From the IMG/VR virus record IMGVR_UViG_3300048998_000060, positions 1 through 39,072 of that record: a DNA stretch of 39,072 nucleotides. The stretch is one strand, 5' to 3'. This DNA is from a virus (Duplodnaviria > Caudoviricetes). The notes under the pieces are model-generated. The model saw only the letters and a list, made by a program, of their open reading frames with translations. It made no database searches and was not told the origin of the DNA. Position 1 is the stretch's first letter. Every line of letters begins with the position of its first letter. This document shows positions 7,963 through 39,072 of the stretch, piece after piece. The position numbers and the translations under genes are program-made.

Positions 7963-8868
7963 ATGCCACTGTTGCGCGCTGTAGCCGAAAAACTCTCCCA
8001 ACAGGAGATGCTGCGCGGCGTTATCGAGGAGATCATCTACCGTGATGACCTGCTCGCGCTGCTCCCTTTCACCCGTACCGACGGCAAGTCGTTGCTGTAC
8101 ATCCGTGAGCTGACCAACAGCGAAGGCGCATTCCTCGACGTCAACGACGTCGTGCCAGAAGGCACCTCGGACGTGCAAGAAGTCGTGACTCGTCTGCGAA
8201 TCATCGCTGGCGACGTTGATGTCGACAAATTCATCGACGAAACCATGAGCGACAAGAACAGCCAGTTGGCTCTTCAGATCGCCATGAAAGCCAAGGGCCT
8301 GGCTACCACCTTCCGCCGCGCACTCGTGCAAGGCAACAGCACTGTCGACACCAAGTCGTTCGACGGCATCGCGAAACTGGTTGCTGATACCGGCAACTTC
8401 TTCGACGCTGGCGTTAACGGTTCGGCTATCAGCCTGTCCATCCTGGACGAACTGATCGACAAGCTGATGGGTCGTCGTCCAGACGCTCTGATGATGCGTA
8501 CCGGTACTCTGCGTGCCCTGCGTGCTCTGTGGCGTGCTGCTGGCGGTAACAACGGCGCCATGCTGCAAATCGACAACTTCGGTCTGTCGGTTCCTCAGCA
8601 CGATGGCATCCCGATCATCCTGAACGACTTCATCCCTGTCGTTGCTCAGGGCACCACTCCAAGCACCTGCTCGGTCTACGCTCTGCGTCTGAACGAAGCT
8701 GATGGCCTGCACGGCCTGTACGGTGGCGAATCTGCTGGTATCCGTGTCGAAGACATCGGCACCGTGCAGAACAAAGACGCGACCCGTACTCGTCTGAAGT
8801 GGTACTGCGGTCTGGCTCTGAAGTCCACCAAATCGCTGGCTGCCGTTCGCGGTATCACCAACGTGTAA
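7963..8868 (+). CDS. major capsid protein (HK97 fold)
   Basis: 301 aa, strong AGGAG RBS, highly biased codons. MPLLRAVAEKLS...GDVDVDKFI...RTRLKWYCGLAL pattern as in SSU5-like MCPs (recalled). Confidence 0.9.
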   Translation: MPLLRAVAEKLSQQEMLRGVIEEIIYRDDLLALLPFTRTDGKSLLYIRELTNSEGAFLDVNDVVPEGTSDVQEVVTRLRIIAGDVDVDKFIDETMSDKNSQLALQIAMKAKGLATTFRRALVQGNSTVDTKSFDGIAKLVADTGNFFDAGVNGSAISLSILDELIDKLMGRRPDALMMRTGTLRALRALWRAAGGNNGAMLQIDNFGLSVPQHDGIPIILNDFIPVVAQGTTPSTCSVYALRLNEADGLHGLYGGESAGIRVEDIGTVQNKDATRTRLKWYCGLALKSTKSLAAVRGITNV

Positions 8869-22617: not shown

Positions 22618-22651
22618 GTTCCATCACCCTGGAATACGACCGGGGTGATGG
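22608..22651 (+). other. programmed -1 ribosomal frameshift signal
   Basis: In-frame A AAA AAG (22608-22614), then TAG, a 6-nt spacer and a 12-bp hairpin CCATCACCCTGG-AATACGA-CCGGGGTGATGG (22621-22651). Confidence 0.8.
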
Positions 22652-23207: not shown

Positions 23208-23208
23208 C

Positions 23209-23682
23209 ATGGTAATGGTCTTCGATCCAACCAAAAACTATGCCGAGTTTGGGAACGCCTTCATTCGAGGGCGTCTCAAAGGTGCAAACGGTGAGGCTCG
23301 CTTCAAGCTCACCGCCAACACTCTGAACGCGGTGAGCACTCTGAACATCAAGGGCGGTGCGGTGACGTACAACTTCGCTCTCAGGTATCAGGGTGTTCAG
23401 TCAACAGCGCCTCTTACTGGGACGTTCGAGGTTGTAGACAACGGGGTTTTCCTCGAATTTATCTGCTATGGTTCCGGCTGCACAGGGGTGATCATCGACG
23501 GCGTTCTTCAGCCGATCATCTCTCAGAAGAAGGTTTCTATGGGATGCATCCCCTGGAACATGGTCTTGCCAATGGCCAAGGGCACGCACACCGTTCAGCT
23601 TGTTCACCCAGGTACATCAGTGAGCAGCGACGGTTACATTTTCGTGAAGTACATCCGGCCGACGGGCTCGGGTAACGCATAG
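23209..23682 (+). CDS. gpJ C-terminal-like module 2 (free-standing)
   Basis: AEFGNAFIRGRLKGANGEARFKLTANTLNAVSTLNIKGGAVT, paralogous to the start of module 1. Confidence 0.75.
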   Translation: MVMVFDPTKNYAEFGNAFIRGRLKGANGEARFKLTANTLNAVSTLNIKGGAVTYNFALRYQGVQSTAPLTGTFEVVDNGVFLEFICYGSGCTGVIIDGVLQPIISQKKVSMGCIPWNMVLPMAKGTHTVQLVHPGTSVSSDGYIFVKYIRPTGSGNA

Positions 23683-23691
23683 GGGTCAGCA

Positions 23692-24492
23692 ATGGCTGGT
23701 GAAGCAGAGTGCCAATTCAACACGAACGTGTGGTTGCGCGGTCGTCTTGTAGGCGTCAACGGTGACTTCTCAGGTACGTTCAGCGCTCTCAACGTAGATG
23801 TGGCCGGCGCCCTGAACATTCGCAACGGTGCTGTTTCGGCCTACACCTCTTATAGCGCCACCGCATATCCCTCTCTACAGAAGGGGATGATGAAAACTCT
23901 GGAGTTCACGGTTCAGCAGCAGCCTTTCAACTCGATCATCGACATCACCATTCCGATGACCTGTGAGGTGTACTACTACCGCTGTGAGTTCCCAGCAAAA
24001 ATCAGGTGGTACCGAAACAACGTGCTGGTCAAAGAGGACGACATCAATGACCTGTACACCCGGGGGCTTGGTGGCAACCAGTACAACCATCGAATCAGCT
24101 TTGCATCGGTGAGGCTGATCGACTTCGATGTGCCAGCAGATGCTGTCGTGACCTATCGCGTGGAGATTATCGACTACTACCTGTACGCTCGTGGCATGGG
24201 TACGATCCCGCTGCCAGGCAACCCAGGTGGTTACTCCGGCTACTACACCTACAACGGCGACGGGTTCACTTCTGACGCTGCGTACTGGAACAACCTGAGA
24301 AACCCCTCGTACCCGGACACTCAGTATTGGTACGGCGAACAAGGTTCAGGTGGTGTAGGTGCCGGTTATGCGATCAACTCGAACCACATCGTTGAAACAT
24401 CGACCAACAAGTTCTCAACTCAGGCGATGATCAAGCCGAACATTCGTCTATACTTCAAGGGCAAAGCTCTGATCGGTATCCGCAAAAGGTGA
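23692..24492 (+). CDS. gpJ C-terminal-like module 3 (free-standing, putative receptor-binding)
   Basis: CQFNTNVWLRGRLVGVNGDFSGTFSALNVDVAGALNIRNGAVS, followed by a Tyr/Gly-rich insertion. GGGG RBS. Confidence 0.75.
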   Translation: MAGEAECQFNTNVWLRGRLVGVNGDFSGTFSALNVDVAGALNIRNGAVSAYTSYSATAYPSLQKGMMKTLEFTVQQQPFNSIIDITIPMTCEVYYYRCEFPAKIRWYRNNVLVKEDDINDLYTRGLGGNQYNHRISFASVRLIDFDVPADAVVTYRVEIIDYYLYARGMGTIPLPGNPGGYSGYYTYNGDGFTSDAAYWNNLRNPSYPDTQYWYGEQGSGGVGAGYAINSNHIVETSTNKFSTQAMIKPNIRLYFKGKALIGIRKR

Positions 24493-24496
24493 AATC

Positions 24497-24925
24497 ATGT
24501 TCAAAGGCACAATCTACAACGTCAACACCGGACTGATCGTCAGCTCTATGGTCTCCAGTACCGAAGAGGCGATCACTCTTCAGCTCACCCTGAACCCTGA
24601 TCATCGGGTTTACATGGGCCAAGAGTTCAACAACGACCTGCATTACTTCGTTGATGGCGTTCCTGTATCGAAGCTGAGAATGCCTTTGACCATCAATGGC
24701 GAGATTTACGACCACAGCGGTGAAGAGCTCCAGTTTCATCCTGGGGACACTGTGAAGATCGAGGGCATCCCAAACGGTGCTCAGGTTATCTACCCGGGTG
24801 GCAGTCTCATCGTAGATGACGGCTTCATCGAGTGGTCTACCGATGAGTCCAACTTCTTCTCCTTCGTAATCGAAGCTCAGCCATACATGAGAGAAATTAT
24901 TTATGCCAATTTTGTCCAAGCATGA
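24497..24925 (+). CDS. tail tip accessory / fibre assembly protein
   Basis: 142 aa, YNVNTGLIVS...HYFVDG...IEGIPNGA...IEAQPY pattern of small tail-associated proteins. AAGGTG RBS. Confidence 0.6.
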   Translation: MFKGTIYNVNTGLIVSSMVSSTEEAITLQLTLNPDHRVYMGQEFNNDLHYFVDGVPVSKLRMPLTINGEIYDHSGEELQFHPGDTVKIEGIPNGAQVIYPGGSLIVDDGFIEWSTDESNFFSFVIEAQPYMREIIYANFVQA

Positions 24926-25283
24926 CCCTCTCAGCACTACGCCAGCTAGTGAAATAGTGATTCGTCAGCGTGGTGGTCAAGAAGAGTCTCTGGTTGATAC
25001 TCAGTACGGCCGGCTTCAGTTCGATCTTGCGAGCGACCGTCGAATGAACTCTGTGCTGATGACGCTTACTCCTGGTGATGCAACAAGCGTCACTGAATGG
25101 AAGCTGTTGGACAACACCACAGTTACTCTGACCTATGAACAGCTCAGAGACCTGATTGAAGAAGCCAAGCTCGCATTTGGATTCCGGTGTCAGTACGTTT
25201 TCCCTATTGTTCAAGAGCTCCTAGAGCTGTCAAGAACAAAGGGTGCCACTATGCGTGACCTCGAATCACGGAAATGGTACTGA
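24903..25283 (+). CDS. DUF4376-like tail fibre chaperone
   Basis: FDLASDRRMN...EWKLLDNTTVTLTYEQL motif. Confidence 0.65.
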   Translation: MPILSKHDPLSTTPASEIVIRQRGGQEESLVDTQYGRLQFDLASDRRMNSVLMTLTPGDATSVTEWKLLDNTTVTLTYEQLRDLIEEAKLAFGFRCQYVFPIVQELLELSRTKGATMRDLESRKWY

Positions 25284-25331: not shown

Positions 25332-27416
25332 ATGACCTGGTACACCACTGGCACCATCACTCTCGTCCAAAACAGCGATACAGCCACGGGTGATGGTACT
25401 CAGTGGCTCGAAAACGTTCGCTATGGCGATATTCTCATGGTGGCTGACAAGCTCTATGAGGTCGTCGAAGCAAAGAACGATGTCCAGCTGACACTGACGA
25501 AGCCGTACACAGGCGCGACCGTAGTTGGTCAGCCATACGCGCTCATTCGAAACATGACCAACGCCAGCAATTACGACCTGATCAAACAGATCGACACGTT
25601 GCTGACCGAGCGCACCGAGAATCTTGACCAGTTCGCTGCATGGATGGCCGGTACCGTAAATGGTGGCCCAGCAAGCGACGGCAGATACCCTCTGACCAAC
25701 CGTGTTGGTTCGACCATTCAGGTCTACTGCCCAGCGAAGATGGCTTCTCTTGCAGGTGCTGATCAGACCGCAGCCATTCAAGCGGTAGCTGCTCAGGTCA
25801 CCACGCTGAATACTCTGCTGTCCGACTATTCAGACATCGAGGCGAAGGTCGAAGCGTTCACAGGGATCACTCTGGAATCCCTGGGCGGTCAAGCATCGAG
25901 TCTCAAGCTGTCTTCCATTGCAGCTCTGACCTTCGATCCGCTGGGCAACGAATTCATGGTGTCGATCAACGACAACTCGTTCGCAAAGTTCCCTATCAGC
26001 GACCGAGCGCTTTCTTTGCTCGCTGCTGAAACCCCTCAGCTGATGCGTACAGTGCTCGGTATCGCGTCCGGGGGTTCAGGTGGTGGGTCAGGGTCGGGTG
26101 GAGAGCCCGGACGTCGCGTAGCTATCATTGGGACCTCCCTGTGCCAGCTGTGCAACTACGGTACCGCGACTGAGCTTTCTCAGACCAATCGTTCCTGGAT
26201 CGGCTGGGCGATGACGCTCACCAATCAGCGCATGATCATGCCAATCTGGCGTGACATGAACCTGTACCCGGGTTGGGAAGCAGGTAGCAACGTCGGTACT
26301 CCTCGTGGGTTCCGCGGACTGAACGCTGGTGTGTCGAGTGACCACTCTGACAACATCTTGAACCGAGCGTCGTATCTGGTAGCCAACGTCGACTGTGACT
26401 TCGTGATCATCGACTCCGGTATCAACGACATCGGTAACAACAGCCTGACCAGCGACGACATCGCTCTGATGCGGGAACAGACTGCTGACTATCTGCTGGC
26501 CAACGGCAAAACTGTGATCCTGCTGCCTCTGCTCAGCCCTGCTGCCGCTTACTACCCGATCGGCAGTGTCCAGCGCCGCAAGATGCAGCGTGTGAACAAC
26601 CGTGCCCGCCAGTTCTGTCAGACCCGGACCAACCTGTACTTCTTCGATTGGACGGAGTACATGATGAACTTCAACGACCCCAACGGTCAGCCGAAGCCTC
26701 TGCACTCTGTAGACGGCCTTCACTTCGCCCCTCGTGGTGCGTTCGCTGTCGGTAAAGGGCTCGCTGACCTGTTCACTACCCTGCTGCCGAAAGCAGAGCG
26801 TCGTGTGTGGTCTCCTGAAGACCTGTACGACGGCACTCTCGATCCGTATGGCAACCTGATGCAGAACCCGTTCTGCTACGGTTCGAGCGGTACTCTTGAC
26901 GCAGGTGCTACGGGCTTCTGTGCAAACGGTATGCGTATCGGTATCAACAGCGGTGACGGCAGCGTTGTAGGGAGCATGGTTGCTCGTGCAGATGGTCGTG
27001 GTCAGTGGCAGCAGCTTGTAGTCACACCCGGTACCGCAGAAACTCAAGCTCTGTTCCGCGTAAGCGATATCGTCAACACTCTGCCGGCCGGCACCTGGGT
27101 TCAAGCAAGCGCAGAAGTAGAGTGCGATGCCTGGGATGGTTGGAAGGGTATCAACATTCAGGTACGCGACCTTGCTGTTGGTGGGATTACTTGTCACGCC
27201 ATGAAGGTCTATGATGGCTTCCCAAATACAGCAGAGACTTGGGCCGGCACTGTAGTAGGTCCAGCATTTCAGATCGTAGGCGATGGTTCACTGCTTCGCT
27301 GGCGCGTTGAAGCAACCTCTATGGCTGCTGCGACGGGCAAAGGTACTGTCAGAATTGGTGCCGTTGAGTTTCGCCCGGTCCAAGACCCTAAAATCATTGT
27401 GAACGCGGTGGTATAA
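25332..27416 (+). CDS. side tail fibre/spike 1 with SGNH/GDSL esterase and C-terminal carbohydrate-binding-like domain
   Basis: N-terminal MTWYTTGTITL tail anchor. SGNH blocks IIGTSL, NAGVSSD, DSGIND and DGLHF, then a beta-sandwich C-terminus. Confidence 0.8.
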   Translation: MTWYTTGTITLVQNSDTATGDGTQWLENVRYGDILMVADKLYEVVEAKNDVQLTLTKPYTGATVVGQPYALIRNMTNASNYDLIKQIDTLLTERTENLDQFAAWMAGTVNGGPASDGRYPLTNRVGSTIQVYCPAKMASLAGADQTAAIQAVAAQVTTLNTLLSDYSDIEAKVEAFTGITLESLGGQASSLKLSSIAALTFDPLGNEFMVSINDNSFAKFPISDRALSLLAAETPQLMRTVLGIASGGSGGGSGSGGEPGRRVAIIGTSLCQLCNYGTATELSQTNRSWIGWAMTLTNQRMIMPIWRDMNLYPGWEAGSNVGTPRGFRGLNAGVSSDHSDNILNRASYLVANVDCDFVIIDSGINDIGNNSLTSDDIALMREQTADYLLANGKTVILLPLLSPAAAYYPIGSVQRRKMQRVNNRARQFCQTRTNLYFFDWTEYMMNFNDPNGQPKPLHSVDGLHFAPRGAFAVGKGLADLFTTLLPKAERRVWSPEDLYDGTLDPYGNLMQNPFCYGSSGTLDAGATGFCANGMRIGINSGDGSVVGSMVARADGRGQWQQLVVTPGTAETQALFRVSDIVNTLPAGTWVQASAEVECDAWDGWKGINIQVRDLAVGGITCHAMKVYDGFPNTAETWAGTVVGPAFQIVGDGSLLRWRVEATSMAAATGKGTVRIGAVEFRPVQDPKIIVNAVV

Positions 27417-27418
27417 GC

Positions 27419-30280
27419 ATGAGCTGGTATAACGACGGCACTATCGCACTGACCTCTGGCAGCAAAGTTGTCATTGGTACAGAGACCAAATTTCTGAGCA
27501 ACATCCGCAATGGCTCGATTCTGATGATCGAAGGCAAACTGCGGATCATCAACGACATCAAGTCGGACACCGAGCTTGAGCTGGAAGTAGCCTATGACGG
27601 GACTACTGGTTCAGGTCGTGCCTACGAAATCATCCGTAACTGGACAGACACGAGTTCGACTGAGCTGGCTATTCGGATCGATGAGTTCTTGACCGATCGC
27701 CAACGCACGATGGATGAGTTTGTTGACTGGGTAAACGGTACGTACAACGGTGGTGTCGGCAACGAGGGTAAGTACCCTCTGACTGACCGCTACGGTGTCG
27801 TCACGCTCGTGAAAAGCCCACAGCGAATGGCCTACGAATCTGGTGGTCCAGGTAGCGGTGGTGGCAGCGGTGCTGATCTGAAGGGCGCGAACATCTGGTT
27901 GGCCAGCGACTACGGTGTACTCGGTGGTTCGACCATCGATGAGACCGACAACATCAACGATGCAATCGCAGCCTGTGGTCAGGCCGGCGGTGGTACCGTG
28001 ATCGTTCGCAGCCATAACGGTATCGACCCGATCTACATCAACAAGCTGATCTCCATTGAGTACAACAACGTCACCCTCAAATGGGAGAGTGACGTGACCT
28101 ACGGTTCGGTTGGATGGCAGCGCATCTCTGGTGGTCTGGCTGAGATTCGCCGCCCGGGTCAGACTGAGCTGCTGAAGCTTCGAGCCAACAGCACGACTGA
28201 TGCCAACGGCTACATGGTTCTGCCGATGAGAGCTGGTAACGGTTCGTTCTTGGTCGTGGGTGATCGCATCACTGTGCGTGGTCAGAACACCAAGTCAGGC
28301 GCCGTCATCGAGAAGCAAGTGACCACCGTAACTGCAATCAGCGGTGACGATGTGACCTGCTCGGATGAACCTGACTACACGTTCAAGCCGACCTACCCAC
28401 TTTCTGACTACCCGGAAGACTTGACCACCGGTACCACAATCTCGATCAGCGTGTTCTCGGCGATGACTACCAACGTCAAGAACACCGATGTGATCCCGGT
28501 TGTCAGCACGACTGGCTTCTTTGCTGGTGACCTGGTGTACATCAGCGACAGCCGTACCGAGAAAGACATGATGGCTCCGGTTGTCACCAACCTGCTGTCT
28601 GCTGCGAACATGGAAATCTGCCGGATCGCTGCTATCGAGGGGAACAACATTCGCCTTGAACGAGCTGTTCGTCGTGAGTATCTGATCGCCTGGGGTGCAG
28701 GTGTAGTGAAGATGGATGCTGTGAAGAACAGCCACATCAAGCTGCGCAACGTGACTTGGGTAGGCATTCAACCAGACCGCAAAGCACACGGTGCAGCTAT
28801 CAACTACGGTTGGGAATGCACCGTTCAGGTAGACGACATGTACGGCCGGGGTGGTCGCAAAGGGATCGGTATTCGTATCGCCTATGCCTACGACTGTCAC
28901 GCCATTGGTTCGAAGGTCTATGACGCCTACAGCTTCGCATCTGCTGAAGGGTACGGCATCAGCCTCTACTACTCGACTCTCTGCACAGTGCGGAACAACA
29001 TCTCCTCTGGGAACCGTCACAACATCCTGTTGCAGACCGCGACCTCGTGTGACGTGTTCGACAACACCTGCAACGATGACTACATCAGTGGCATCGACTT
29101 GCACGGTGCCGGCTCTGTTGACTGCCGAGTCATGCGCAACCGTATCTCGCGGTCGAAATCGTATGCAGACGGTGTTACCAACGGTGGTGCCATTCGTAAC
29201 GGTAACACTGCGCACACCATCGGTGACCACCGGACTGTGATCGCTGACAACTACATCGAGGGCTACCTGGATACCAAGTGTGCGGCGATCGACGTTTCGC
29301 CAAGCTCGAATGGTGTGGTGGTTCGAAACAACGATATCGTGGACTGTGCAGTAGGCTTCCGTCACTACAACGTGGGCAGCGCGATCACGCCTGCTCAGTA
29401 CAGCGACCGCATCTTGCTGGACAGCAACACCTACACCCGAGTAGCCAGCCCATACGGTCTGAACAACTACTCGAACTCGATCGTCACCGAGATTTATGCC
29501 ATCAACGAGAAGTCCATCGAGAACAGCACCCACTTTGTCATCAAGGGTATCCCGAAGGTGACTATGATCGGCTGCAAGATCATCGCACCCAAAGCTGCTG
29601 CCGGTGGTTACGCTTTCGATATCAACGGGTCGACCAAGTTCATCGGCTATGACAACGTGGCCGGCGAAGCTGCACGCGGGTTCAAGATCACCAACTGCGT
29701 GTACGCCAAAATGGTGCGCAACTTCCTGGGCGATACTCTCGAAGGCATCGGCGTAACAGATGGTGGTGGTAACACTACTCTGCTGAACCTTCAGAACACC
29801 GATGTTGTTTCGGGTGGCGGTGGTACTGCGAGCCCTGCGAAGTTCACTCGCATCAACGGTACTCTGGCTGTGAACGCAACCTCGACTGACCCGGTGAACA
29901 TCGACACGAACACCCCAAGCATCGCCAACGGTCTCACAGCCGTCTCTGGGGCCGTCAACGTCGCAATCGGGAGTCTTATCGAGGTGTACGCTTGCATCCC
30001 GTATGTGAGCTTGGGCGGCTCTACAGGCCCAGTCTCTGCGCACTTGTGGGCAGACGGTACCCGAGTAGCTTCGGCGATCGATCGGTTGACCGCTTCTACA
30101 GGTGCAGAGAACACCGGTGGTAAAGACTTCGTGCTGGTGGCCAACTTCATCGCCACCGAAACGGTTCTCGATTTGATCCTCAAGATCGGTCCGAACGCCA
30201 CGAGTAACACGATCATGCTCAACAGCAAATGGAACGGGGCAAGTCAGCCCTACCTGCTCATCAAGGAGTTCCCGCAATGA
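27419..30280 (+). CDS. tail spike 2, right-handed parallel beta-helix depolymerase
   Basis: N-terminal anchor paralogous to spike 1. SDYGVLG..IDETDNINDAIAA...GGGTV cap motif, Asn/Cys-ladder beta-helix repeats and IDLHG motif. Confidence 0.85.
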   Translation: MSWYNDGTIALTSGSKVVIGTETKFLSNIRNGSILMIEGKLRIINDIKSDTELELEVAYDGTTGSGRAYEIIRNWTDTSSTELAIRIDEFLTDRQRTMDEFVDWVNGTYNGGVGNEGKYPLTDRYGVVTLVKSPQRMAYESGGPGSGGGSGADLKGANIWLASDYGVLGGSTIDETDNINDAIAACGQAGGGTVIVRSHNGIDPIYINKLISIEYNNVTLKWESDVTYGSVGWQRISGGLAEIRRPGQTELLKLRANSTTDANGYMVLPMRAGNGSFLVVGDRITVRGQNTKSGAVIEKQVTTVTAISGDDVTCSDEPDYTFKPTYPLSDYPEDLTTGTTISISVFSAMTTNVKNTDVIPVVSTTGFFAGDLVYISDSRTEKDMMAPVVTNLLSAANMEICRIAAIEGNNIRLERAVRREYLIAWGAGVVKMDAVKNSHIKLRNVTWVGIQPDRKAHGAAINYGWECTVQVDDMYGRGGRKGIGIRIAYAYDCHAIGSKVYDAYSFASAEGYGISLYYSTLCTVRNNISSGNRHNILLQTATSCDVFDNTCNDDYISGIDLHGAGSVDCRVMRNRISRSKSYADGVTNGGAIRNGNTAHTIGDHRTVIADNYIEGYLDTKCAAIDVSPSSNGVVVRNNDIVDCAVGFRHYNVGSAITPAQYSDRILLDSNTYTRVASPYGLNNYSNSIVTEIYAINEKSIENSTHFVIKGIPKVTMIGCKIIAPKAAAGGYAFDINGSTKFIGYDNVAGEAARGFKITNCVYAKMVRNFLGDTLEGIGVTDGGGNTTLLNLQNTDVVSGGGGTASPAKFTRINGTLAVNATSTDPVNIDTNTPSIANGLTAVSGAVNVAIGSLIEVYACIPYVSLGGSTGPVSAHLWADGTRVASAIDRLTASTGAENTGGKDFVLVANFIATETVLDLILKIGPNATSNTIMLNSKWNGASQPYLLIKEFPQ

Positions 30281-30684
30281 AAAGCGAGTTCTTGACCAAG
30301 TTCAACGGCATTCAACTTGAGAAGCGTAAGTGGGAGATAGCCGCGCCCCTCAAGTTCAATGACGAAGTGTTCGGGCGAATCACAGCCGAGGTCGGTTTTC
30401 AGACTGATCTTGCGTCGATCAACTCGCTGCGCTACATCGCACCCCTTCTGTACGCTCTTCTCGTGGGCTACGGGAACGCCGCCTGTACGATTCATGACAT
30501 GCTCTACAAAGAGGGACGGCTCTCTCGTAAAGCGTGTGACGAAGTGCTCTATCGTGCGCTTCGTGCCGAAGGTGTGGCAAAATGGCGTGCTGCCATTTTC
30601 TACGCCGGCGTAAGGGTATTTGGCGGCCGTTTTTACAATGATGACAATGGCTCCAACAACTCTCAGGCTGCTCAGGCCGTTTAA
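30277..30684 (+). CDS. DUF1353 family protein
   Basis: GFQTDLASI...ACTIHDMLY...RKACDEVL...FYAGVRVFG. ATGA overlap, AAGGAG RBS. Confidence 0.85.
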   Translation: MKSEFLTKFNGIQLEKRKWEIAAPLKFNDEVFGRITAEVGFQTDLASINSLRYIAPLLYALLVGYGNAACTIHDMLYKEGRLSRKACDEVLYRALRAEGVAKWRAAIFYAGVRVFGGRFYNDDNGSNNSQAAQAV

Positions 30685-30699
30685 TACGAGGAAAGCGCA

Positions 30700-32439
30700 A
30701 TGCCAAATATGGTAGAGGATATCAATGTCGGAGGTACGTGGCTCAACGCTTCCGTTACCGCTGGCTACACGCCGGGCAAACAGATCGTTCTCCAGAACAA
30801 GGGCGTGTATTCGCTTTTGGTAATGGTCAAGTCTGACTCGCCTGCATCGAGCTCCATCTCGGGCTTCCGTCTGGGTCCGAACGAACGGTTTTCGTCCATC
30901 TTCAATGATACGGTCTGGGTTCGTTCTGAATCCGGTACCACCAGTATGGCCATCGCCTCCCTGGATAACGCTCTCGACAGCACTCTGCCTGCATCGGTTG
31001 CTCTCAGCGATACCGTACTCGACCTGGGTACCGGTGATACCAAACAGCTGACTGCAACTGTCTCGCCGGCCGGTGTCTCTCAGACCGTGACCTGGACTTC
31101 GAGCGATCCGACCATCGCAACCGTTTCGAACACCGGTCTGGTTCGAAGCCTCAAGAAAGGCAGCGTGTCGATCAAAGCCATCGCAACCAACGGTGTCTTC
31201 AGCTCTTGCGCTACCACTGGTACTCAGATCAAGGCTGTTACTCAGTGGAACTCGGTCAACAAAGAGTTCGATAACTTCGGTACCACTCAAGGTCTGTTGG
31301 GTTACTGGTCTCGTGTTCCTCAGCGTATCGGCGATGCTACCAAGCAAGTGCGCCTGTACTTCTACAACTGGATCATGAAAGACACCCGTAACGGCCTCTG
31401 CACCAACCCAGGCAACGGCAACACTGTTACCGGGTGCTCGGTCGAGTTCAACGGTATCGTCAAGCCTGTGACCTTCAACGGCGGTCGTACTCTGGCAATG
31501 GTGGATGGTGAAGCGGGCGTGTTCGCAGACCCACTGAAGGCAAGCGACTTCAACGTTACCTCGTTTCCGAAAAATGCCCTGATCACGATCAACACTCGTA
31601 TCACCATCCCAACTGGTGGCGTGCTGGGTTACTCGACTCGTGAAAGCGGTCAAACCAACGGCTCGCAGTCGATGTACTACAACCCAGCCAATACAACTCT
31701 GTCGAGCATCGACGCAGCCGGCCTGGTCACTACCACCGGTACCGCTCCACAAAGCCGTATCGTCATGTACTGCCCGTTCGTTCTGGGTCTGCACGTCGAT
31801 CAAGATGCAGTATCGGTTCTGGTTGAGGGTGACTCGATTATGGCCGGCGTGGGTGACGCTTCTGTTCAGGACAACATCGGTATCGGTTATGCAAACCGCA
31901 TGATCACTGCTGCACAGGTTGCAGGTCTGAACCTGGGTGTTGGTGGCTCTCGCGCAATCGACGGCATTCTCGATCCTCGCTTCACTGCGCTGCACAAATA
32001 CTGTACTCATGCTATGGTTGGCTACGGTACCAACAACCTGGAGCCAGGTGTCAGCACCACCGCTCAGTCGATTGTCGACATCATCAAACAGCGGATCGCT
32101 TCTCACCAAGCAAACGGTATCAATCGTACCCTGGTATGCAAGCTCACACCTCGTACTACTGCAACCGTTAGCGCCACTGGCTGGACCACTCTGGACAACC
32201 AAGTTGCTCAGGGTCAAGCTCTCACCAACCAGTTCAACACTCTGCTGGATACCTCTGGTTTCTACGGCGTGTTGCAGAACACCGCAGTTCGAGCACCAAG
32301 CAATTTGGACCTGTGGATTCCGAACAACACCCCGGATGGTTTGCACCCAGGTGGTAACGACAACGGTGGCGGTCATGCGAAGCTTGCCGTTCAAGGCACT
32401 TCGCAGTTCACTGCGATGATTGCCCCAGTGGCAGCGTAA
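30700..32439 (+). CDS. virion appendage: shared N-domain + Ig-like (Big_2) + beta-sandwich + SGNH esterase
   Basis: Big_2 motif QLTATVSP...VTWTSSDPTIATVSNTGLV. SGNH blocks EGDSI, NLGVGG, GYGTNN and DGLHP. Confidence 0.82.
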   Translation: MPNMVEDINVGGTWLNASVTAGYTPGKQIVLQNKGVYSLLVMVKSDSPASSSISGFRLGPNERFSSIFNDTVWVRSESGTTSMAIASLDNALDSTLPASVALSDTVLDLGTGDTKQLTATVSPAGVSQTVTWTSSDPTIATVSNTGLVRSLKKGSVSIKAIATNGVFSSCATTGTQIKAVTQWNSVNKEFDNFGTTQGLLGYWSRVPQRIGDATKQVRLYFYNWIMKDTRNGLCTNPGNGNTVTGCSVEFNGIVKPVTFNGGRTLAMVDGEAGVFADPLKASDFNVTSFPKNALITINTRITIPTGGVLGYSTRESGQTNGSQSMYYNPANTTLSSIDAAGLVTTTGTAPQSRIVMYCPFVLGLHVDQDAVSVLVEGDSIMAGVGDASVQDNIGIGYANRMITAAQVAGLNLGVGGSRAIDGILDPRFTALHKYCTHAMVGYGTNNLEPGVSTTAQSIVDIIKQRIASHQANGINRTLVCKLTPRTTATVSATGWTTLDNQVAQGQALTNQFNTLLDTSGFYGVLQNTAVRAPSNLDLWIPNNTPDGLHPGGNDNGGGHAKLAVQGTSQFTAMIAPVAA

Positions 32440-32445
32440 TCAAAT

Positions 32446-32471
32446 AGACCGCAGGGATGCGGTCTCTATTT
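32446..32471 (+). terminator. hairpin / weak terminator
   Basis: AGACCGCA-GGGA-TGCGGTCT followed by CTATTT. Confidence 0.5.
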
Positions 32472-32479
32472 AAGAGGTC

Positions 32480-32500
32480 CAAAATGGCTGACATGATCGA
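32480..32500 (+). repeat. 21-nt direct repeat, copy 1
   Basis: CAAAATGGCTGACATGATCGA, identical to 36464-36484. Confidence 0.85.
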
Positions 32501-35500
32501 AGATGTGGGAATCCCCCGAGACTGGGTGAACGCTTACACCGTCTCTGGTTTCACCGCGGGCTCAGCTCTCACCATCCAGAACAAGGGCGCATACCCTATT
32601 CTGGTAATGGTGAGAGTCGCGAGCCCTGCTGCCGGCAATCTCAGCGGCTTTCGTCTGACTCAAAATGAAACTTGGCAAGGCAAGGCTGGCGATACAGTGT
32701 GGCTGCGTGGCGAGGGCGGGACTTCGATGGTCTGTCTTCAGTCGAGTACGGCCAACGTCATCGTGCCTGAAAGCGTTTCTGTTTCTCCCAAGCCAATCAG
32801 TCTGACCGCAGGGTCTACTCAACAGCTGCTGGCCAACGTTCTTCCTTCCGGGTCGCCTCAAGCAGTGTCCTGGTCTACCAGTGATGCTTCTGTTGCAACC
32901 GTATCGACTGCTGGTCTGGTTACTGCTGTGCCTGGTGCTGCTACCGGCGCAACTGCAAGCATCACCGCCACCACTTCGAACGGTAAGACCGACACCACCG
33001 TCTTGACCATCGCTGCCACTGTTGTGGTGCCGGCAAGCGTCTCTATCGATCCAACCTCGGCCTCGCTGACCGCGGGTACTACCCAGCAGTTCACCGCGAC
33101 TGTGCTGCCTGCTAACTCGACCAACAAGACTGTCACCTGGGCAACCAGCGACACCTCGAAGGCGACTGTCAACGCAAGCGGCCTGGTGACCACTGTGATC
33201 GGCGCTGTAGGTGCTGTTGATCTGACTGCGACCACTGTATCTGGCGGCCGTACTTCGAAGGTCACTGTGACCGTTACTGTTGCAGAAGTTGCAATGATGG
33301 CGACCACGTACAACCCAATCGCGACCGTCTTCACCTCTATCACCACCGAAACTCGCACTTCGATGCGTATGCCCGTCACCATTGCCGGCGCTCGCAAGAA
33401 CTACGGTCACATGTTCCCTTGGTGGGCAGTCAAAGAGAACCTCACTCCGGTCACCAGTACCGGTTCGCAGAACGTGGGCAACGGTGTGACGTTCGAGAAG
33501 GTTGCGGTCGAGTACAACGGCGTCTCGATGCCCGCCTACTTCCCTGGCAACTCTCGTTCGGCTGTAGTCACTGACGGACAAGCAACTGACCCTGCTGCAT
33601 GGGTGAACGCTGCTGACTTCGGTTTGACCGAGTTCCCGCACGGGGCAACTCTCGTCGTCAAGTTCGACATGACTGTTCCAGCAAACGGTATCATCCCGAT
33701 CACTGACAAGTACCTGCCTGGCTTCACTGGCACCGTAGCTCAGTGCTGGACATATGACCCGGCTGCAACCGTTGTCTCTGACATCGACGCTGTAGGTGTT
33801 CGTACTCTCACCTCTGGCACTGCGGCAACCACTCGCGGCAAGTGGTTCAACGGTATCGGTATCGGCGTACCTGTCGACCCAACCGTATTGGCAGTCTGTG
33901 CATTCGGTGATTCTCTCGGCGCCGGCTTGAACGACGATGTGTTCCCACAACCATTCGGCCCTGGCTACATCGGTCGTTACCTGCAAGCTTTCACCAAGCC
34001 TGTTGCATACCTCAACCTGTGCGCTGTCGGTCGCTACGTTGTTCAGATGATCCCGGATGCTCGAATGACCCGTCTGGTCAAGCTGTGCAACCAGGGTATC
34101 GGTAACGGCGGTGCCAACGATCTGTTGTTTGGTCGCACTGGCGTCGTAAGCACCATGATCACTGCTATGAATGCCACCGTTGCTGCTTACAAAGCTGCGG
34201 GCTTGAAGACTGTGACCGTTCACAAAATGCCACCTGTCACCAACGACACGACCGGTAACTGGCAGATTCAGAGCAATCTGACCTACGCCACGAACTTCGA
34301 GCCGGGTGGTATCGCAGACGTCTTCAACGCCGCTATCGACAATCAGGGCTTTGACCTCGTTCTCAACGGTGATGAATGGCGTGATCTGACCGATCGCAAC
34401 AAGAACCGCACCAACGGTACTGCGAAGGCGTACTGGAAGGACGGTATTCACCCTCAGAAAATCCTCAACGACATCATGGTCGCGGTCGAGAAGCCTGCGC
34501 TGGTAGCTCTGTGGGCAAACGGCACCACTACCGGGCGTTCGATGGAAGCTGACTTCGTTGCGAAGACCTACAAGCAAGGTCTGCCTCTCGCATCGAGCAC
34601 TCTGTCTGCCATCGGTGGCGCTGTCACTCGCGCTTCGACTGCAACGTACTGGGACGCCGGCCTCTTGAAGACCGCTGCCGCGAACGTCGCACGGATTCAG
34701 ACTGATGGTCTGATCATCGAGCGCTCTCGCACCAACCTCCAGATTCAGTCCAACAACCCTGGTGCTTGGGGTAACGGTGCTGCAACTGGTACTGCAAACG
34801 GCGCGACCGGTCTGGATGGGACCAGCTCTGCTTTCCTGGCGACCTCGGGTAGCAGCACCAAGTCTCAGCACAACACCACGATCCCGACCACCAATCTGCC
34901 GTACACCGCACAAATCTGGGTGAAGACTCTCGCATCCGGCAAGGTGTATCTGCCAGCGTTCGGTATCTACGACAAGGTGATCAACGCTAACGACGACACC
35001 AGCTACTACGACTTCGCGACCAACACGTTTGGTGCGGGCATGATGACAGGGTGGAAGGCAGACGTCGGTGGTATCTACGGCATCTGGACTCGACTGAGCA
35101 TCACGATGGTCAACAGCCAGGCCGGGTCGATCTTCACTGCAATCTGGAAGCAGGACGCAACCGCTCAGATCACTTGGGGCGGCATGATGCTGGAGCAGTC
35201 TGCATCGCCAACCAGCTATGTTCCGACTACCACTGTTGCGGTGACTCGTGCAGCTGAAACTCTGCTGATCAAGAACGGCGAAGGCTGGTACTTGGGCCAG
35301 GGCACCATGGCTGCTGATGTCGACGACCTTGTTCTCGCTACTCAGAACACCAACGGCATCGCTGTCGAGGGTATCGGTCGGGTTCGTAAGCTGTCCTTCG
35401 ATGTTGGCACCAAGTTCGTAGCCAAGCGTCTCAACGTCATCGGCATGAACCTGGCCGGCGCTGAGTTCGGCAGCAACGTACCGGGTGTGGCTGACACTGA

Positions 35501-36392
35501 CTACTTCTGGCCAGCGCAGGCTGTCTTCGCACGCTACAAGGCTTACGGTATCAACCTGGTCCGAGTACCTTTCAAGTGGGAGCGTATCCAGAAGACTCTG
35601 GGCGGCGCACTCGATACTGCTGAACTGGCTCGCATGGTTGCCACCCTGAACCTCGCTGCTGCGAACGGTATGCAGGTCGTCTTGGACATGCACAACTACT
35701 TCGAGCGTCTGGTTGGTTCTACCACCTTCCGCATCGGTTCTGCTGATGTGACCCGTGCTCAGTGGGTAGACTGCTGGACCAAGATCGTTACCGCTGTACA
35801 AGGGAACGCAGGTCTGTATGGCTACGGTCTGATGAACGAACCGAAGGGCACCACCGGGTACGATGCTTCTCAGCAGTGGGCACCAGCAGCTCAGGCTTGC
35901 GTGACTGCAATCCGTGCAATCGATCCAACCACCACGATCTTCGTGGCCGGCGACGGTTACTCGGGCGCTCACGTTTGGCTGGAGCAGAACAAGACGTTCC
36001 CTCTGGTCGGAAAAAACCTGGTCTACGAGGCTCACTCCTACCTGGACTCGGACAACTCCGGTCGTTATGTTGACCGCAGCGAAGCGATCGATCCACAGGT
36101 TGGTGTCAACCGTCTCACCGTGTTTGCGAACTGGCTCAAGCAGTACGGTCAGCGCGGGATCATCGGTGAAATGGGTTGCCCTGCTGACATGCCTACCGCA
36201 TTGGCAGCGCTCAACAACGCTGTAGCCTTCTCCAGCGCTAACAACATCCCACTGTTCTACTGGGCTGGTGGTGCATACTGGAGCCAGGGTCAAGAGACGG
36301 CCATCGAGTACAACGGCACTGTCCTCGGGCAGATGAACGTCCTCGACGACTACTTCAAGTTCGTCAACCAAATCGGCCCACAGGCCGTTTAA
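32484..36392 (+). CDS. multidomain appendage: shared N-domain + 2x Big_2 + SGNH esterase + head-spike-fibre-like domain + GH5 endoglucanase (1302 aa)
   Basis: AAGAGG RBS before ATG 32484. SGNH blocks FGDSL, GGAND and DGIHP. TRASTATY...GLIIE...TNL...LEQ...PTSYVPT...RAAE domain. GH5 motifs GMNLAGAEFG, RVPFKWER, DMHNY, GLMNEP (Glu 35838-35840), YEAHSYLD and IIGEMG (Glu 36168-36170). Confidence 0.88.
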   Translation: MADMIEDVGIPRDWVNAYTVSGFTAGSALTIQNKGAYPILVMVRVASPAAGNLSGFRLTQNETWQGKAGDTVWLRGEGGTSMVCLQSSTANVIVPESVSVSPKPISLTAGSTQQLLANVLPSGSPQAVSWSTSDASVATVSTAGLVTAVPGAATGATASITATTSNGKTDTTVLTIAATVVVPASVSIDPTSASLTAGTTQQFTATVLPANSTNKTVTWATSDTSKATVNASGLVTTVIGAVGAVDLTATTVSGGRTSKVTVTVTVAEVAMMATTYNPIATVFTSITTETRTSMRMPVTIAGARKNYGHMFPWWAVKENLTPVTSTGSQNVGNGVTFEKVAVEYNGVSMPAYFPGNSRSAVVTDGQATDPAAWVNAADFGLTEFPHGATLVVKFDMTVPANGIIPITDKYLPGFTGTVAQCWTYDPAATVVSDIDAVGVRTLTSGTAATTRGKWFNGIGIGVPVDPTVLAVCAFGDSLGAGLNDDVFPQPFGPGYIGRYLQAFTKPVAYLNLCAVGRYVVQMIPDARMTRLVKLCNQGIGNGGANDLLFGRTGVVSTMITAMNATVAAYKAAGLKTVTVHKMPPVTNDTTGNWQIQSNLTYATNFEPGGIADVFNAAIDNQGFDLVLNGDEWRDLTDRNKNRTNGTAKAYWKDGIHPQKILNDIMVAVEKPALVALWANGTTTGRSMEADFVAKTYKQGLPLASSTLSAIGGAVTRASTATYWDAGLLKTAAANVARIQTDGLIIERSRTNLQIQSNNPGAWGNGAATGTANGATGLDGTSSAFLATSGSSTKSQHNTTIPTTNLPYTAQIWVKTLASGKVYLPAFGIYDKVINANDDTSYYDFATNTFGAGMMTGWKADVGGIYGIWTRLSITMVNSQAGSIFTAIWKQDATAQITWGGMMLEQSASPTSYVPTTTVAVTRAAETLLIKNGEGWYLGQGTMAADVDDLVLATQNTNGIAVEGIGRVRKLSFDVGTKFVAKRLNVIGMNLAGAEFGSNVPGVADTDYFWPAQAVFARYKAYGINLVRVPFKWERIQKTLGGALDTAELARMVATLNLAAANGMQVVLDMHNYFERLVGSTTFRIGSADVTRAQWVDCWTKIVTAVQGNAGLYGYGLMNEPKGTTGYDASQQWAPAAQACVTAIRAIDPTTTIFVAGDGYSGAHVWLEQNKTFPLVGKNLVYEAHSYLDSDNSGRYVDRSEAIDPQVGVNRLTVFANWLKQYGQRGIIGEMGCPADMPTALAALNNAVAFSSANNIPLFYWAGGAYWSQGQETAIEYNGTVLGQMNVLDDYFKFVNQIGPQAV

Positions 36393-36404
36393 CCAGCAGT
36401 GATT

Positions 36405-36432
36405 GCAAAAGCCACTTGATTGTGGCTTTTGC
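36405..36432. terminator. perfect inverted repeat, likely (bidirectional) terminator
   Basis: GCAAAAGCCAC-TTGATT-GTGGCTTTTGC, just after the GH5 gene. Confidence 0.7.
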
Positions 36433-36463
36433 GTTATTATGGTCCGCACAATTTGGAGGGCTT

Positions 36464-36484
36464 CAAAATGGCTGACATGATCGA
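36464..36484 (+). repeat. 21-nt direct repeat, copy 2
   Basis: CAAAATGGCTGACATGATCGA, identical to 32480-32500. Confidence 0.85.
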
Positions 36485-36734
36485 CGACACGTCGGTACCC
36501 GTTACATGGGTCAATGCGCACACTCTTGCGGGTATTACCGCCGGCGTTGCGATCACTATCAACGTCAAAGGGGCCTTTCCTATCTTGGCGATGGTAGGCA
36601 ACACAGCTCCATTGGAAGGCATCGCATCCGGTTATCGCATGTTGCCTAACACTCTTTGGGCTACCGATCTTGGAGACACTCTCTGGATCAGAGCCGAAAG
36701 CGGTATCACCACTGCAAGCATTCAGGAGAAATGA
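36468..36734 (+). CDS. free-standing ~88-aa shared N-domain protein (putative spike base / docking protein)
   Basis: GGAGG RBS before ATG 36468. Full-length paralog of the N-termini of 30700 and 32484. Confidence 0.8.
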   Translation: MADMIDDTSVPVTWVNAHTLAGITAGVAITINVKGAFPILAMVGNTAPLEGIASGYRMLPNTLWATDLGDTLWIRAESGITTASIQEK

Positions 36735-36735
36735 G

Positions 36736-39072
36736 ATGCCTCTGAAGCAGGTTCTTCCAGTCGCCGCAACGATCACTGAAGGTGACGGGGCGTCCCAGGA
36801 GCAGATCGATCAGATCGCTGCCTTGGCCAACAACGCACAGACTGTAGCTCAGGCTGCATCGACTGCCGCCACCACTGCTGGTACTAAAGCCGACGCTGCG
36901 AAGACTGCTGCTGATGGCTACTCTGCTCAAATCACCGCAGCCGGCACGAAGGCTGACAACGCAAAGTCGGCCGCAGACGCCGCTGCTGCTGCTGCATCGA
37001 CTGCCTCTTCAAAGGCTGACGCTGTAACCAGCACTGCTGCTGCCGCACAGACCACGGCAAACACTGCCAAGACCACTGCTGACACTGCCAAGTCGACAGC
37101 CGATGGTGCAAAGGCAACTGCTGACGGTCTGTCTGCTCAAGTCACTGCCGCTGGAACCAAAGCTGACAACGCCAAGACTGCTGCTGATTCGGCCGCTGCT
37201 GCTGCTACTACTGCTGGTACTAAAGCTGACACCGCCAAGACTGCTGCCGACAATGCTGTCTCGGTAGCAAACGGTTTCGGCTCTCGCATCAGTGACCTCG
37301 AAACAATTGAAGCCAGTTACACCGAACAAATCGCTGGTGCGAACGCTACGGCCAATCAGGCCAACTCCGCTGCTCAGAACGCTATCGCTATCGCCAACGA
37401 TCTCGATGACTCTATCGACGCCGCGGTAGCTAAAGCCGACACAGCTCTGAGCACCGCAAACGGCGTAGATGCAAAGGCTACCGCTGCTCAAACCGCAGCG
37501 AACAATGCGAACACCAACGCTTCGACCGCACTGACTACTGCGAACGCCACCGCTACACAGGCCGGCGATCTGTCGACCCAGGTGACGAACCTTTCGAACT
37601 CGGTAACTCTGATCGGTCAGAAAGCAACCGACGCTCAGACAACTGCGAACGCAGCCAGCGCTACTGCGAGCCAACTCGATGACCGTATCGACGCTCACGA
37701 CAGCCGTCTGGATGAAGTCGACACTCGTCTGGATGCTCTTGAGTCCAGTACTGGTGGCGGTACCGGCCCAGCGTATGACGACACTGCGATCACCGGGCGA
37801 GTCAGCACCCTGGAAACCGACAACACTACCAACAAGGCCAACATCGCGACTCTTCAGGCTGCTTCTGCTGCCGCGGGCGCTGCAATCCCGATGGAGTACC
37901 TTTCTGTCTGGGGTGACAGCCGTACCGCACAGAACTGGAACAGTGCTGGTAACGCCATCTTGGCCCGCGGGTATGGTTGGTGGGCAGAGTGCTTGTCTGG
38001 CCGAGTTCGTATGCACCTGAAGTACAACTTCGGTGTATCCGGTGACTCGATTCAGCAGCTCTTGGACCGCATGAACAACGACACTGCAAACGCCTCGGGT
38101 GTTAAGCCGTCTCAAGTTCCGCCAAGCCACGCTGTTCTGCACATCGGCACCAACAGCATCAACGCCGGTACCACTGTTGCAAGCTGCATGTATCAGCTGA
38201 ACCTGTGCATCACCTGGTTGCTGAACAAGGGTCACACCGTCTACGTCGTATCGGAATGGCCTCGTGGTCTGACTGCAACCGGCAACGCCATGCTGACTGC
38301 TGACAACCAGAAGATCATGTACGGCTACGCTCGTGAAGTTCGCAAGCTGGGCAAAGCCAAGAAGGTCAAGATCATCGACGTATGGCCGGCAATGGCTGAC
38401 CCTACCCTGTCAACTGCTCAGCCTCGTCTGAACTACCTGAACGGTGATGGTCTGCATCCATCGATCGGCGCAGGTTTCTTGACCGGTAAGCTGATTGCAA
38501 AAGCCCTGGAAGAAAACAACGCCCACAAGATCGCGTTCCCACCAGGTTCTCAGGACCTGTACGACGCTACCAGCAACAAGGAAGGCTCTCTGAGCCCCAA
38601 CCCTATGCTGCGTGGTACCGCTGGTGTTGTGAGTGCTACAGGCGCTTCTGGTACTGCTCCAGACAGCTGGACTCTGACCCCTACTACCGGCATGACTGCT
38701 GTTGGTAGCCAGGTCATCGTGACCATGCCTGATGGTACCAAGCGTGAAGCTCAGCGCATCGTCATCAGTGGTACACCAGCAGCAAACGGTTCTGTGTACC
38801 TGCGGATTCCGAACACCACTCGTGCGAACGCAACTGGCGTCTGGTACGGCAAGATCAACGATGGTGACATCATCGAGGGTTGGGCTGAAATCATGGTGTC
38901 GGATGGCTTCACCAACATGAGCAACGTGACCTGCAACATTGCAGCCGATACTACCGCTCTGTCTGCCCTGGGTGGTACTTACACATCGGGTGGTACTACT
39001 GGTGACCTGCAATGGCCAGACAACTTGAAGCAAGCCTTCTCTGCGGTCATTCGATCGCCTGAGTTGGTCGTT
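36736..39072 (+). CDS. long Ala/Thr coiled-coil fibre with SGNH esterase and carbohydrate-binding-like domain (partial, runs off the window; >779 aa)
   Basis: AGGAG RBS, ATG 36736, and no stop seen on manual translation: MPLKQVLPVAATITEG...(AGTKAD repeats)...VWGDSR...NFGVSGD...HIGTNS...DGLHPS...DLYDATSNKEGSLSPNPML. Absent from the ORF track because it is open-ended. Confidence 0.85.
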   Translation, partial: MPLKQVLPVAATITEGDGASQEQIDQIAALANNAQTVAQAASTAATTAGTKADAAKTAADGYSAQITAAGTKADNAKSAADAAAAAASTASSKADAVTSTAAAAQTTANTAKTTADTAKSTADGAKATADGLSAQVTAAGTKADNAKTAADSAAAAATTAGTKADTAKTAADNAVSVANGFGSRISDLETIEASYTEQIAGANATANQANSAAQNAIAIANDLDDSIDAAVAKADTALSTANGVDAKATAAQTAANNANTNASTALTTANATATQAGDLSTQVTNLSNSVTLIGQKATDAQTTANAASATASQLDDRIDAHDSRLDEVDTRLDALESSTGGGTGPAYDDTAITGRVSTLETDNTTNKANIATLQAASAAAGAAIPMEYLSVWGDSRTAQNWNSAGNAILARGYGWWAECLSGRVRMHLKYNFGVSGDSIQQLLDRMNNDTANASGVKPSQVPPSHAVLHIGTNSINAGTTVASCMYQLNLCITWLLNKGHTVYVVSEWPRGLTATGNAMLTADNQKIMYGYAREVRKLGKAKKVKIIDVWPAMADPTLSTAQPRLNYLNGDGLHPSIGAGFLTGKLIAKALEENNAHKIAFPPGSQDLYDATSNKEGSLSPNPMLRGTAGVVSATGASGTAPDSWTLTPTTGMTAVGSQVIVTMPDGTKREAQRIVISGTPAANGSVYLRIPNTTRANATGVWYGKINDGDIIEGWAEIMVSDGFTNMSNVTCNIAADTTALSALGGTYTSGGTTGDLQWPDNLKQAFSAVIRSPELVV

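Follow-up and report, generated by a model that had tools for sequence, protein, structure and literature searches.

A small domain found both free and fused to enzymes in a Nickievirus-like phage as a candidate capsid-surface anchor

In the gene transfer agent of Rhodobacter capsulatus (RcGTA), the head spikes consist of a pentamer of the base protein Rcc01079 and the fibre Rcc01080 (PDB 6TB9; PMC7296036). The base is a jelly roll of 84 amino acids (aa), the N-terminus of which binds to capsid pentamers, and it grips residues 2–10 of the fibre. In the tectiviruses PR772 and PRD1, the penton is built from P31 and from the homologous N-terminal domain of the spike protein P5 in a ratio of three P5 to two P31, and the authors suggested that free P31 relieves crowding (PMC6750898). 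The turrets of HFTV1 are composed of a base hexamer of gp30 and a deacetylase-like head trimer of gp31 (PMC12494034), showing that enzyme-bearing bases can sit on hexamers. Here, a phage sequence of 39,072 nucleotides (nt) from IMG/VR is described (record IMGVR_UViG_3300048998_000060, positions 1 to 39,072; referred to as the window), which carries three copies of a small domain matching phrog_4770, a PHROG family without an assigned function. One copy is a free protein in front of a fibre gene, and the other two form the N-termini of proteins with enzyme cargo. The chances seem about even that this domain is a capsid-surface base, likely anchoring the fibre of the next gene and displaying the fused enzymes.

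An original prediction, made from the letters of the window, had noticed a domain of about 85 aa shared by the genes 30700, 32484 and 36468 (named by their first position). This observation was confirmed and its interpretation was partly supported. A domain of 86–88 aa makes up all of 36468 and the N-terminus of both 30700 and 32484, with exactly three copies on the contig. The copies align with 25 invariant columns at a pairwise identity of 38–49%, and their local alignment scores with each other (176–228) compare to a maximum of 46–54 in 1000 shuffles each. All three match phrog_4770 over its full length (positions 1–92/93 of 94) with E values from 2e-14 to 2e-19. Both fused copies retain the near-invariant residues of the family (M1, D7, W14, G22, G26, N33, P48, G55, and W73) and also the acidic N-terminus of the Nickievirus type.

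The fused copies were said to carry Ig-like Big_2 domains and enzymes, and this was borne out: Big_2 and SGNH hydrolase domains are present in both proteins and a GH5 endoglucanase in 32484 (Table 1). Likeness between the two fusions reaches well past the phrog_4770 domain, with 31% identity over 481 aa. The ATG at 32484, from which the 1302 aa are counted, has a ribosome-binding site. The GH5 domain lies above the PF00150 cut-off (E 2e-41) with both catalytic Glu motifs (aa 1118 and 1227). Ser, Asn, and Asp-x-x-His motifs occur in this order in all four SGNH domains checked (30700, 32484, 36736, and 25332); the Pfam score of 30700 is under the curated cut-off, and the assignment in 32484 comes from PHROG only. 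A single-sequence fold of residues 1–279 of 32484 was uninformative, with a predicted local distance difference test score (pLDDT) of 36. The GH5 domain is close to bacterial enzymes, and GH5-like matches were also seen in Stutzerimonas phages ZQG1 and ZRG1, Pseudomonas phage POR1, and Xanthomonas phage LucasX.

A single nucleotide separates the stop codon of the free copy from the start of the long fibre gene 36736, an ATG, as the original prediction had stated. The fibre opens with a conserved short peptide without a Leu-Gly repeat and ends in an SGNH domain of its own (phrog_6102, E 4e-54); a PDB sequence search with it gave no match. Altogether, four SGNH esterase domains of two types lie within 14 kb (25332–27416, 30700–32439, 32484–36392, and 36736–39072), phrog_6102 in the tail spike and the fibre and phrog_19495/8480 in both fusions. 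A scan of 30200–36800 for sigma-70 promoters found none at the scan threshold. The domain, the fusions, the gene pairing, and the intact catalytic motifs are directly established, as is the predicted fold described below.

Close relatives share the free arrangement. In nickie, ZY21, phiK7B1, Nican01, hairong, and one IMG/VR contig, a free copy is followed within 2–6 nt by a coiled-coil/SGNH gene, and nickie carries the free copy twice, with a different SGNH-bearing partner behind each. These nickie genes (gp39–gp42, L001:14001-18371) form two tandem cassettes with small proteins only 45% alike and might represent a cultured case of paralogs sharing docking sites. In the regions fetched, a fused copy was found in none of the six close relatives, and a tblastn search of 32484 against the five cultured genomes gave a match confined to residues 1–88. 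As the fusions are absent from relatives, the 5.7-kb block from 30700 to 36392 is an addition in the window lineage. Both fused copies group with Nickieviruses in a tree (support 84/81 on 92 columns, inner forks unresolved), and the domain of 32484 is nearer to the free copy of hairong (58% identity) than to its own neighbour (49%). This suggests that the fused copies were acquired by recombination within the Nickievirus-containing group rather than by fresh duplication.

Since the fusions are known from one metagenomic contig of one run, and no fusion-bearing relative was found in metagenome contigs, they could be assembly chimeras. This is very improbable, because the frames are long and intact, the GC content at third codon positions (0.62–0.66) is like that of other late genes, and the three copies are only 48–55% alike in DNA, too little for mis-joining. 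In addition, contigs of one run, which is possibly the source and thus not independent, are identical in the parts covered and bridge both junctions between domain and cargo without differences.

The role of a virion base might also be confined to the free copy, the fusions being recent, lineage-specific genes with products that are freed at lysis as biofilm-degrading enzymes or fail to dock. The absence from all six relatives would fit this explanation, as would the terminator-like hairpin that parts the fusions from the free cassette and the crowding that five chains of 1302 aa would cause in one ring. However, the fused copies have kept the conserved core and N-terminus despite 42–62% divergence from free copies, which points to long selection, and N-terminal fusions recur across the family. 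Ig-like spacers are, moreover, typical of virion-surface proteins. A role of the fusions away from the virion is considered unlikely.

How the domain is used elsewhere was assessed by a profile search covering 1.84 billion representatives. It returned 108 family matches, 85 of 78–100 aa, one of 72 aa, and 22 longer ones. The latter comprise the two window fusions, four spurious repeat proteins with internal partial matches (P0010, P0025, P0058, and P0070), and three short extensions (P0050, P0068, and P0087), the last two groups being left out of the fusion count, as well as 13 proteins with the domain at the N-terminus, among them the doubtful P0018 and P0073 (frameshift- or chimera-like). 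A domain scan of 13 fusions, with P0034 left out and P0005 included, found phrog_1645, 'virion structural protein', in three and an enzyme only in the doubtful P0018. The original prediction had suggested looking in other phages for cargo on this domain; fusions do recur, with fused rows scattered across the family tree, but among the fusions scanned clean enzyme cargo was found only in this window. In a literature search of titles and abstract openings, covering few subscription papers, no account of the phrog_4770 family or of base–enzyme fusions in tailed phages was found.

Another explanation would be that the domain is a carbohydrate-binding or oligomerisation/chaperone module without capsid docking. 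The beta-sandwich with conserved Trp residues would be compatible with it, and so would the connection to glycan-active enzymes, to which carbohydrate-binding modules are often joined. This seems quite improbable, as 85 of the 108 matches are stand-alone proteins of 78–100 aa, the domain is N-terminal in clean fusions, and a Pfam scan of 87 family members gave no match to a carbohydrate-binding module. The same scan had no PF08948 match either, a family to which a weak Atlas lead (score 0.77) had pointed from the phrog_4770 domain; this lead was the sole connection to tectivirus P31/P5 that came to light.

Homologs in cultured phages (75 records with one query, 24 with another) occur in Nickievirus siphophages, in myophages (PhiPLPE, Otagovirus, KIL, Vibrio, and Aeromonas), and in phage AF, which we take to be a podovirus. 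In PhiPLPE, two copies lie two genes after the capsid gene and before an acylhydrolase and two virion proteins confirmed by mass spectrometry. In Vibrio phage 166E36-1, the homolog is found five genes after the capsid gene and before two proteins of over 1100 aa, and in phiPsa374 and KIL5 it is located just before terL. Of 19 loci, seven of which are Nickievirus-like, 16 have the start of the next gene at −4 to +11 nt. At several loci, otherwise unrelated partners (185–1457 aa) open in a similar way, with a short Pro-containing hydrophobic stretch that often leads into a Gly run, as judged by eye. Such a pattern would be expected of a plug peptide like residues 2–10 of the RcGTA fibre (PMC7296036).

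In Vibrio 2.058.O and Aeromonas DL, the gene after the homolog encodes a member of the protein family phrog_5335 as a protein of its own, whereas in KLEP7 gp196 phrog_5335 and the domain form one chain, with a free copy nearby. This 'Rosetta' pattern argues for a physical coupling of the domain and the neighbouring cargo. In the cultured myophage KLEP7, gp194–gp196 (L018:8001-13489) are a free copy, a fibre of 1457 aa, and the fused copy (phrog_4770 plus phrog_5335). Free and fused copies in one genome were seen only in the window, KLEP7 (gp194 and gp196), and PhiPLPE (a 20-aa extension), as locus searches for the fusions P0047 and P0103 in viral contigs and for 32484 in metagenome contigs found none.

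The domain is common to phages with different tails, is mobile in position, and is tied to variable glycan-active partners; most plausibly, it thus binds to the HK97 capsid that these phages share. From this we infer its presence on the virion, its location on the head, possibly at five-fold vertices, and its binding to the fibre. The claim of the original prediction that enzymes are displayed on the capsid therefore stands in so far as the head is the probable site, the family spanning contractile and non-contractile tails and being found in the head modules of several phages. The view of a modular N-terminal domain with a next-door fibre and an anchor separate from that of the tail spikes also held, since both tail spikes have a common anchor of 138 aa (42% identical) that is unrelated to the phrog_4770 domain.

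Alternatively, the domain could be an adaptor on the tail tip or neck, from which extra receptor-binding fibres and enzymes hang beside the two tail spikes. The genes come after the tail-spike genes in all Nickieviruses examined, several partners match 'tail fiber' PHROGs, the SGNH domain of 36736 is related to that of the tail spike 25332, and Big_2 domains are common on tail tubes. The unrelated anchor of the tail spikes and the occurrence of the family with both tail types and in head modules speak against a tail adaptor, and 'tail fiber' labels in PHROGs are, in our judgement, often inherited guesses. A tail adaptor is possible but doubtful.

A number of observations weigh against a base on the head. 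In MR14 and AF, the homolog lies away from head genes (among replication genes and after lysis genes, respectively), and in Nickieviruses the cassette is flanked by tail-spike genes on one side and lysis genes on the other. Closely spaced genes are usual in phages, and the N-termini of the partners in KIL5, AF, PhiPLPE, and Vibrio 2.058.O depart from the peptide pattern. No direct sign of the domain in virions was found. In the KIL3/KIL5 proteome, which is that of a homolog-bearing phage (Table S3), the small homolog (ORF 41, mapped by gene order and size) is missing, and the partner ORF 42 was detected with two and four peptides in preparations that were not CsCl-purified and also hold non-structural proteins (PMC4791379). 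The abundant KIL 'ORF 46' was considered as the small homolog and rejected, as it is a protein of 54.8 kDa despite the GenBank tag KIL3_0046. PhiPLPE gp31 and gp32 carry no mass spectrometry note in GenBank. Furthermore, the region 34540–35330 of 32484 had been likened to head-spike fibre proteins, and a profile of this middle domain (the region plus 30 of 57 homologs, 31 sequences) indeed matched the RcGTA head fibre Rcc01080 with E 4e-67, whereas the window sequence alone had no such PDB match. The same profile also matches the baseplate proteins 9b45 and 8env (E 2e-25) and the tail fibre 9occ, so that the resemblance remains and the head specificity does not. Judging from these matches, the phrog_5939 domain is likely a virion glycan-binding module.

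Fold and sequence comparisons fall on both sides, with the predicted small jelly roll and a weak HHalign link speaking for a base and the generic fold matches and the lack of homology to the RcGTA base speaking against it. An AlphaFold model of the free copy (pLDDT 94) is an all-beta sandwich with seven strands of three or more residues, and the matches listed by VIA-align include jelly-roll/double-stranded-beta-helix folds such as the PM2 spike P1 (Z 7.5, root-mean-square deviation 3.0, 81 aligned). The listed matches are generic, with Z at most 8.2, and are mostly cupins. A Foldseek search of the model against the PDB gave no match at E 0.001, and strong matches in BFVD (template modelling scores 0.76–0.91) were unnamed or uncharacterised phage proteins of 87–104 aa, together with two of roughly 290 aa. 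Among the matches listed in three PDB fold searches, neither 6tb9 (the RcGTA base) nor 8cjz (a spike base) appeared, which is not evidence for a different fold. The phrog_4770 family had no PDB sequence match. In HHalign, the 87-row family compared with 57 Rcc01079-like proteins (a set validated by its seed, which matches 6tb9_E3 at E 2e-19) reached a probability of 1.2% and a score of 13.5, the best of 30 column shuffles reaching 14.3. The presumed kinship to the RcGTA base family is thus not upheld. A weak HHalign link (26%, E 7e-4, score 23 versus at most 10.5 for shuffles) leads to small genes that immediately precede genes for RcGTA-type fibres, based on eight sequences pooled after separate families had given nothing; none of seven separate groups of small genes upstream of RcGTA-type fibre domains scored above shuffles. 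The phrog_4770 profile also had no match in the plus-strand open reading frames of 80 loci with an RcGTA-fibre-like domain. At best, the domain would work like a spike base; by sequence, it does not appear to belong to the RcGTA base family. In the loci L020–L099, several unrelated-looking, beta-rich gene families of 85–125 aa lie directly before RcGTA-type fibre-domain genes, and one of them resembles the C-terminal cargo of P0080, which would mean two tandem base-like domains.

If the domain is a capsid-surface base, the 88-aa jelly-roll module would assemble as a ring outside the capsid. If RcGTA is taken as the model, the contact with the capsid would be made by the conserved acidic N-terminus, and the fibre encoded next door would insert its short N-terminal peptide into the ring, where the free copy would grip it. 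The fused copies keep the acidic N-terminus and the core residues and are therefore likely to dock too, at the same kind of site, where the Ig-like spacers would hold the esterase, glycan-binding, and cellulase-like domains outward. With one kind of site for three copies, the limited sites would be shared, either in mixed rings or in separate rings on different sites. Mixed pentamers of free and fused copies, which the original prediction favoured and for which tectivirus P5/P31 provides a precedent, are a tentative and rather unlikely option, and separate rings on different sites fit equally well. The particle might in this way bind and strip acetylated exopolysaccharide, by de-O-acetylation through SGNH and chain cleavage through GH5, and so reach the cell. 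Acetylated cellulose is a biofilm polymer of Pseudomonas, and because it would be a fitting substrate for a chain with both esterase and endoglucanase domains, it is proposed, as a guess, as a candidate. The most far-reaching version is speculative and rather unlikely: mixed vertex rings of one free and two enzyme-fused versions would give each head a combinatorial coat, made up of the plug-in fibre with its esterase, another esterase, and an esterase–lectin–cellulase chain stripping and cutting acetylated cellulose biofilm, with phrog_4770 as a portable head-display tag. The heteropentamer principle of tectivirus P5/P31 would in that case have been reinvented on an HK97 capsid.

The window itself is a 39-kb fragment of a Nickievirus-like siphophage, with the record estimated at 35% completeness, and the sequence was traced to one soil metagenome run, with no RNA dataset listed as containing it. 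It covers the head-to-tail structural module, with terminase, portal, scaffold, capsid, tape measure, and J-like fibre. The capsid protein shares 87% identity with its counterparts in nickie and three further Nickieviruses, compared to 78% with the one in hairong. As Pseudomonas syringae is the host of the cultured relatives, the host of the window phage can be called Pseudomonas-type at most. Upstream of the terminase, positions 198–2764 hold a ParB-like gene and two genes labelled ABC-transporter-like in PHROGs. Five open reading frames without a PHROG match follow the J-like fibre gene (22599–25283), and nickie has five hypothetical genes in the same place. A DUF1353 gene (30229–30684) sits between the tail spikes and the fusions; a similar-sized gene is found at this place in nickie, ZY21, Nican01, and phiK7B1 and not in hairong or L006.

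Table 1. Positions of the phrog_4770 copies, their cargo, and related features in the window
Feature	Position	Strand	Remarks
Major capsid protein	7963..8868	+	87% identical to nickie; presumed docking partner
Two tail spikes (SGNH; beta-helix)	25332..30280	+	For contrast only, outside the phrog_4770 system
Fusion 1 (579 aa): phrog_4770 domain, Big_2, beta-rich domain, SGNH esterase	30700..32439	+	
phrog_4770 domain copy 1	30700..30963	+	aa 1-88 of 30700; most diverged copy
Big_2 Ig-like domain of 30700	30994..31203	+	aa 99-168; PF02368 E 1e-14
Beta-rich domain and SGNH hydrolase of 30700 (phrog_8480/19495)	31312..32352	+	S379, N445, D546, H549 present
Fusion 2 (1302 aa): phrog_4770 domain, two Big_2, beta/SGNH module, RcGTA-fibre-like domain, GH5 endoglucanase	32484..36392	+	
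phrog_4770 domain copy 2	32484..32747	+	aa 1-88 of 32484; 58% identical to hairong free copy, 49% to free copy of own genome
Two tandem Big_2 domains of 32484	32769..33269	+	about aa 96-177 and 185-262
Beta-rich domain and SGNH hydrolase of 32484	33468..34478	+	S477, N545, D653, H656 present; relatives in P. putida and Sinorhizobium phages
phrog_5939 domain of 32484	34623..35294	+	Profile-related to RcGTA head fibre Rcc01080, baseplate and tail-fibre proteins
GH5 endoglucanase domain of 32484	35436..36350	+	Acid/base E1120 and nucleophile E1229 motifs intact; nearest solved relative 4lx4, E 2e-65
Terminator-like 12-pair hairpin	36404..36433	+	Between fusion 2 and free copy; consensus match only
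Free copy, 88 aa	36468..36734	+	Predicted small jelly-roll beta-sandwich
Fibre gene, truncated by contig end	36736..39072	+	Short N-terminal peptide, Ala-rich coiled coil, SGNH domain (aa 365-720; S395, N473, D571, H574)

If a capsid-surface base is confirmed, an unannotated family of many Pseudomonas, Vibrio, and Aeromonas phages would gain a role, and some 'tail fibre' and 'GDSL lipase' genes would have to be relabelled as head appendages. A tailed phage of plant-associated Pseudomonas would then have esterase and cellulase activity on its head, which bears on the crossing of biofilms, and an 88-aa tag that tolerates C-terminal cargo of 500–1200 aa would be a useful display handle. As cultured Nickieviruses carry the free cassette, nickie even two, the core claim is directly testable.

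The cellulosome is a cohesin–dockerin system in which several glycan-active enzymes are gathered through a small docking domain. Several glycan-active enzymes on one particle, attached via a small docking domain, would be a likeness, but the window has no scaffoldin and no two-partner recognition pair, and the same domain is found on all three proteins. A Pfam scan of seven window proteins found no cohesin or dockerin, and each of the three proteins with the phrog_4770 domain has one copy of it. The term 'cellulosome-like', used in the original prediction, is thus overstated. The RcGTA head spike likewise has a small jelly roll (84–88 aa), the gene of which precedes that of a fibre with a short hydrophobic N-terminal peptide, and 32484 holds a domain of the Rcc01080 family. 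In contrast, there is no profile homology between the base families, 36736 is a coiled-coil SGNH fibre without the alternating Leu-Gly plug, and the passages on the RcGTA base that were considered mention no fusion to cargo (PMC7296036). Tectiviruses have in common with the window phage that one domain occurs both free and N-terminally fused to outward cargo in one genome. Co-assembly of free and fused forms, the mixed-oligomer idea, was shown there; P31 and P5 are the penton itself, of 124–126 aa, in a non-tailed membrane virus, compared to an accessory domain with enzyme cargo in a tailed phage of the HK97 type. HFTV1 is a tailed virus with a capsid-borne base, and its predicted polysaccharide deacetylase, which includes a glycan-binding domain, is a protein apart from the base, but the virus is archaeal, its turrets are on hexamers and not on vertices, and a pair of fused and free paralogs is not described in the passages considered. 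Ig-bearing decoration proteins (T4 Hoc; 7x30 and 9kmh) likewise combine a capsid-binding domain with outward Ig-like domains; the similarity is limited to Big_2, and the sources as available note no enzyme cargo or plug-in fibre. Head spikes made of base and fibre, heteropentamers of free and fused forms, and deacetylases carried on the capsid are already known, each separately. New are an unrelated, widespread candidate base family and, in a tailed phage, the fusion of its members to cargo of several enzymes with a free copy alongside.

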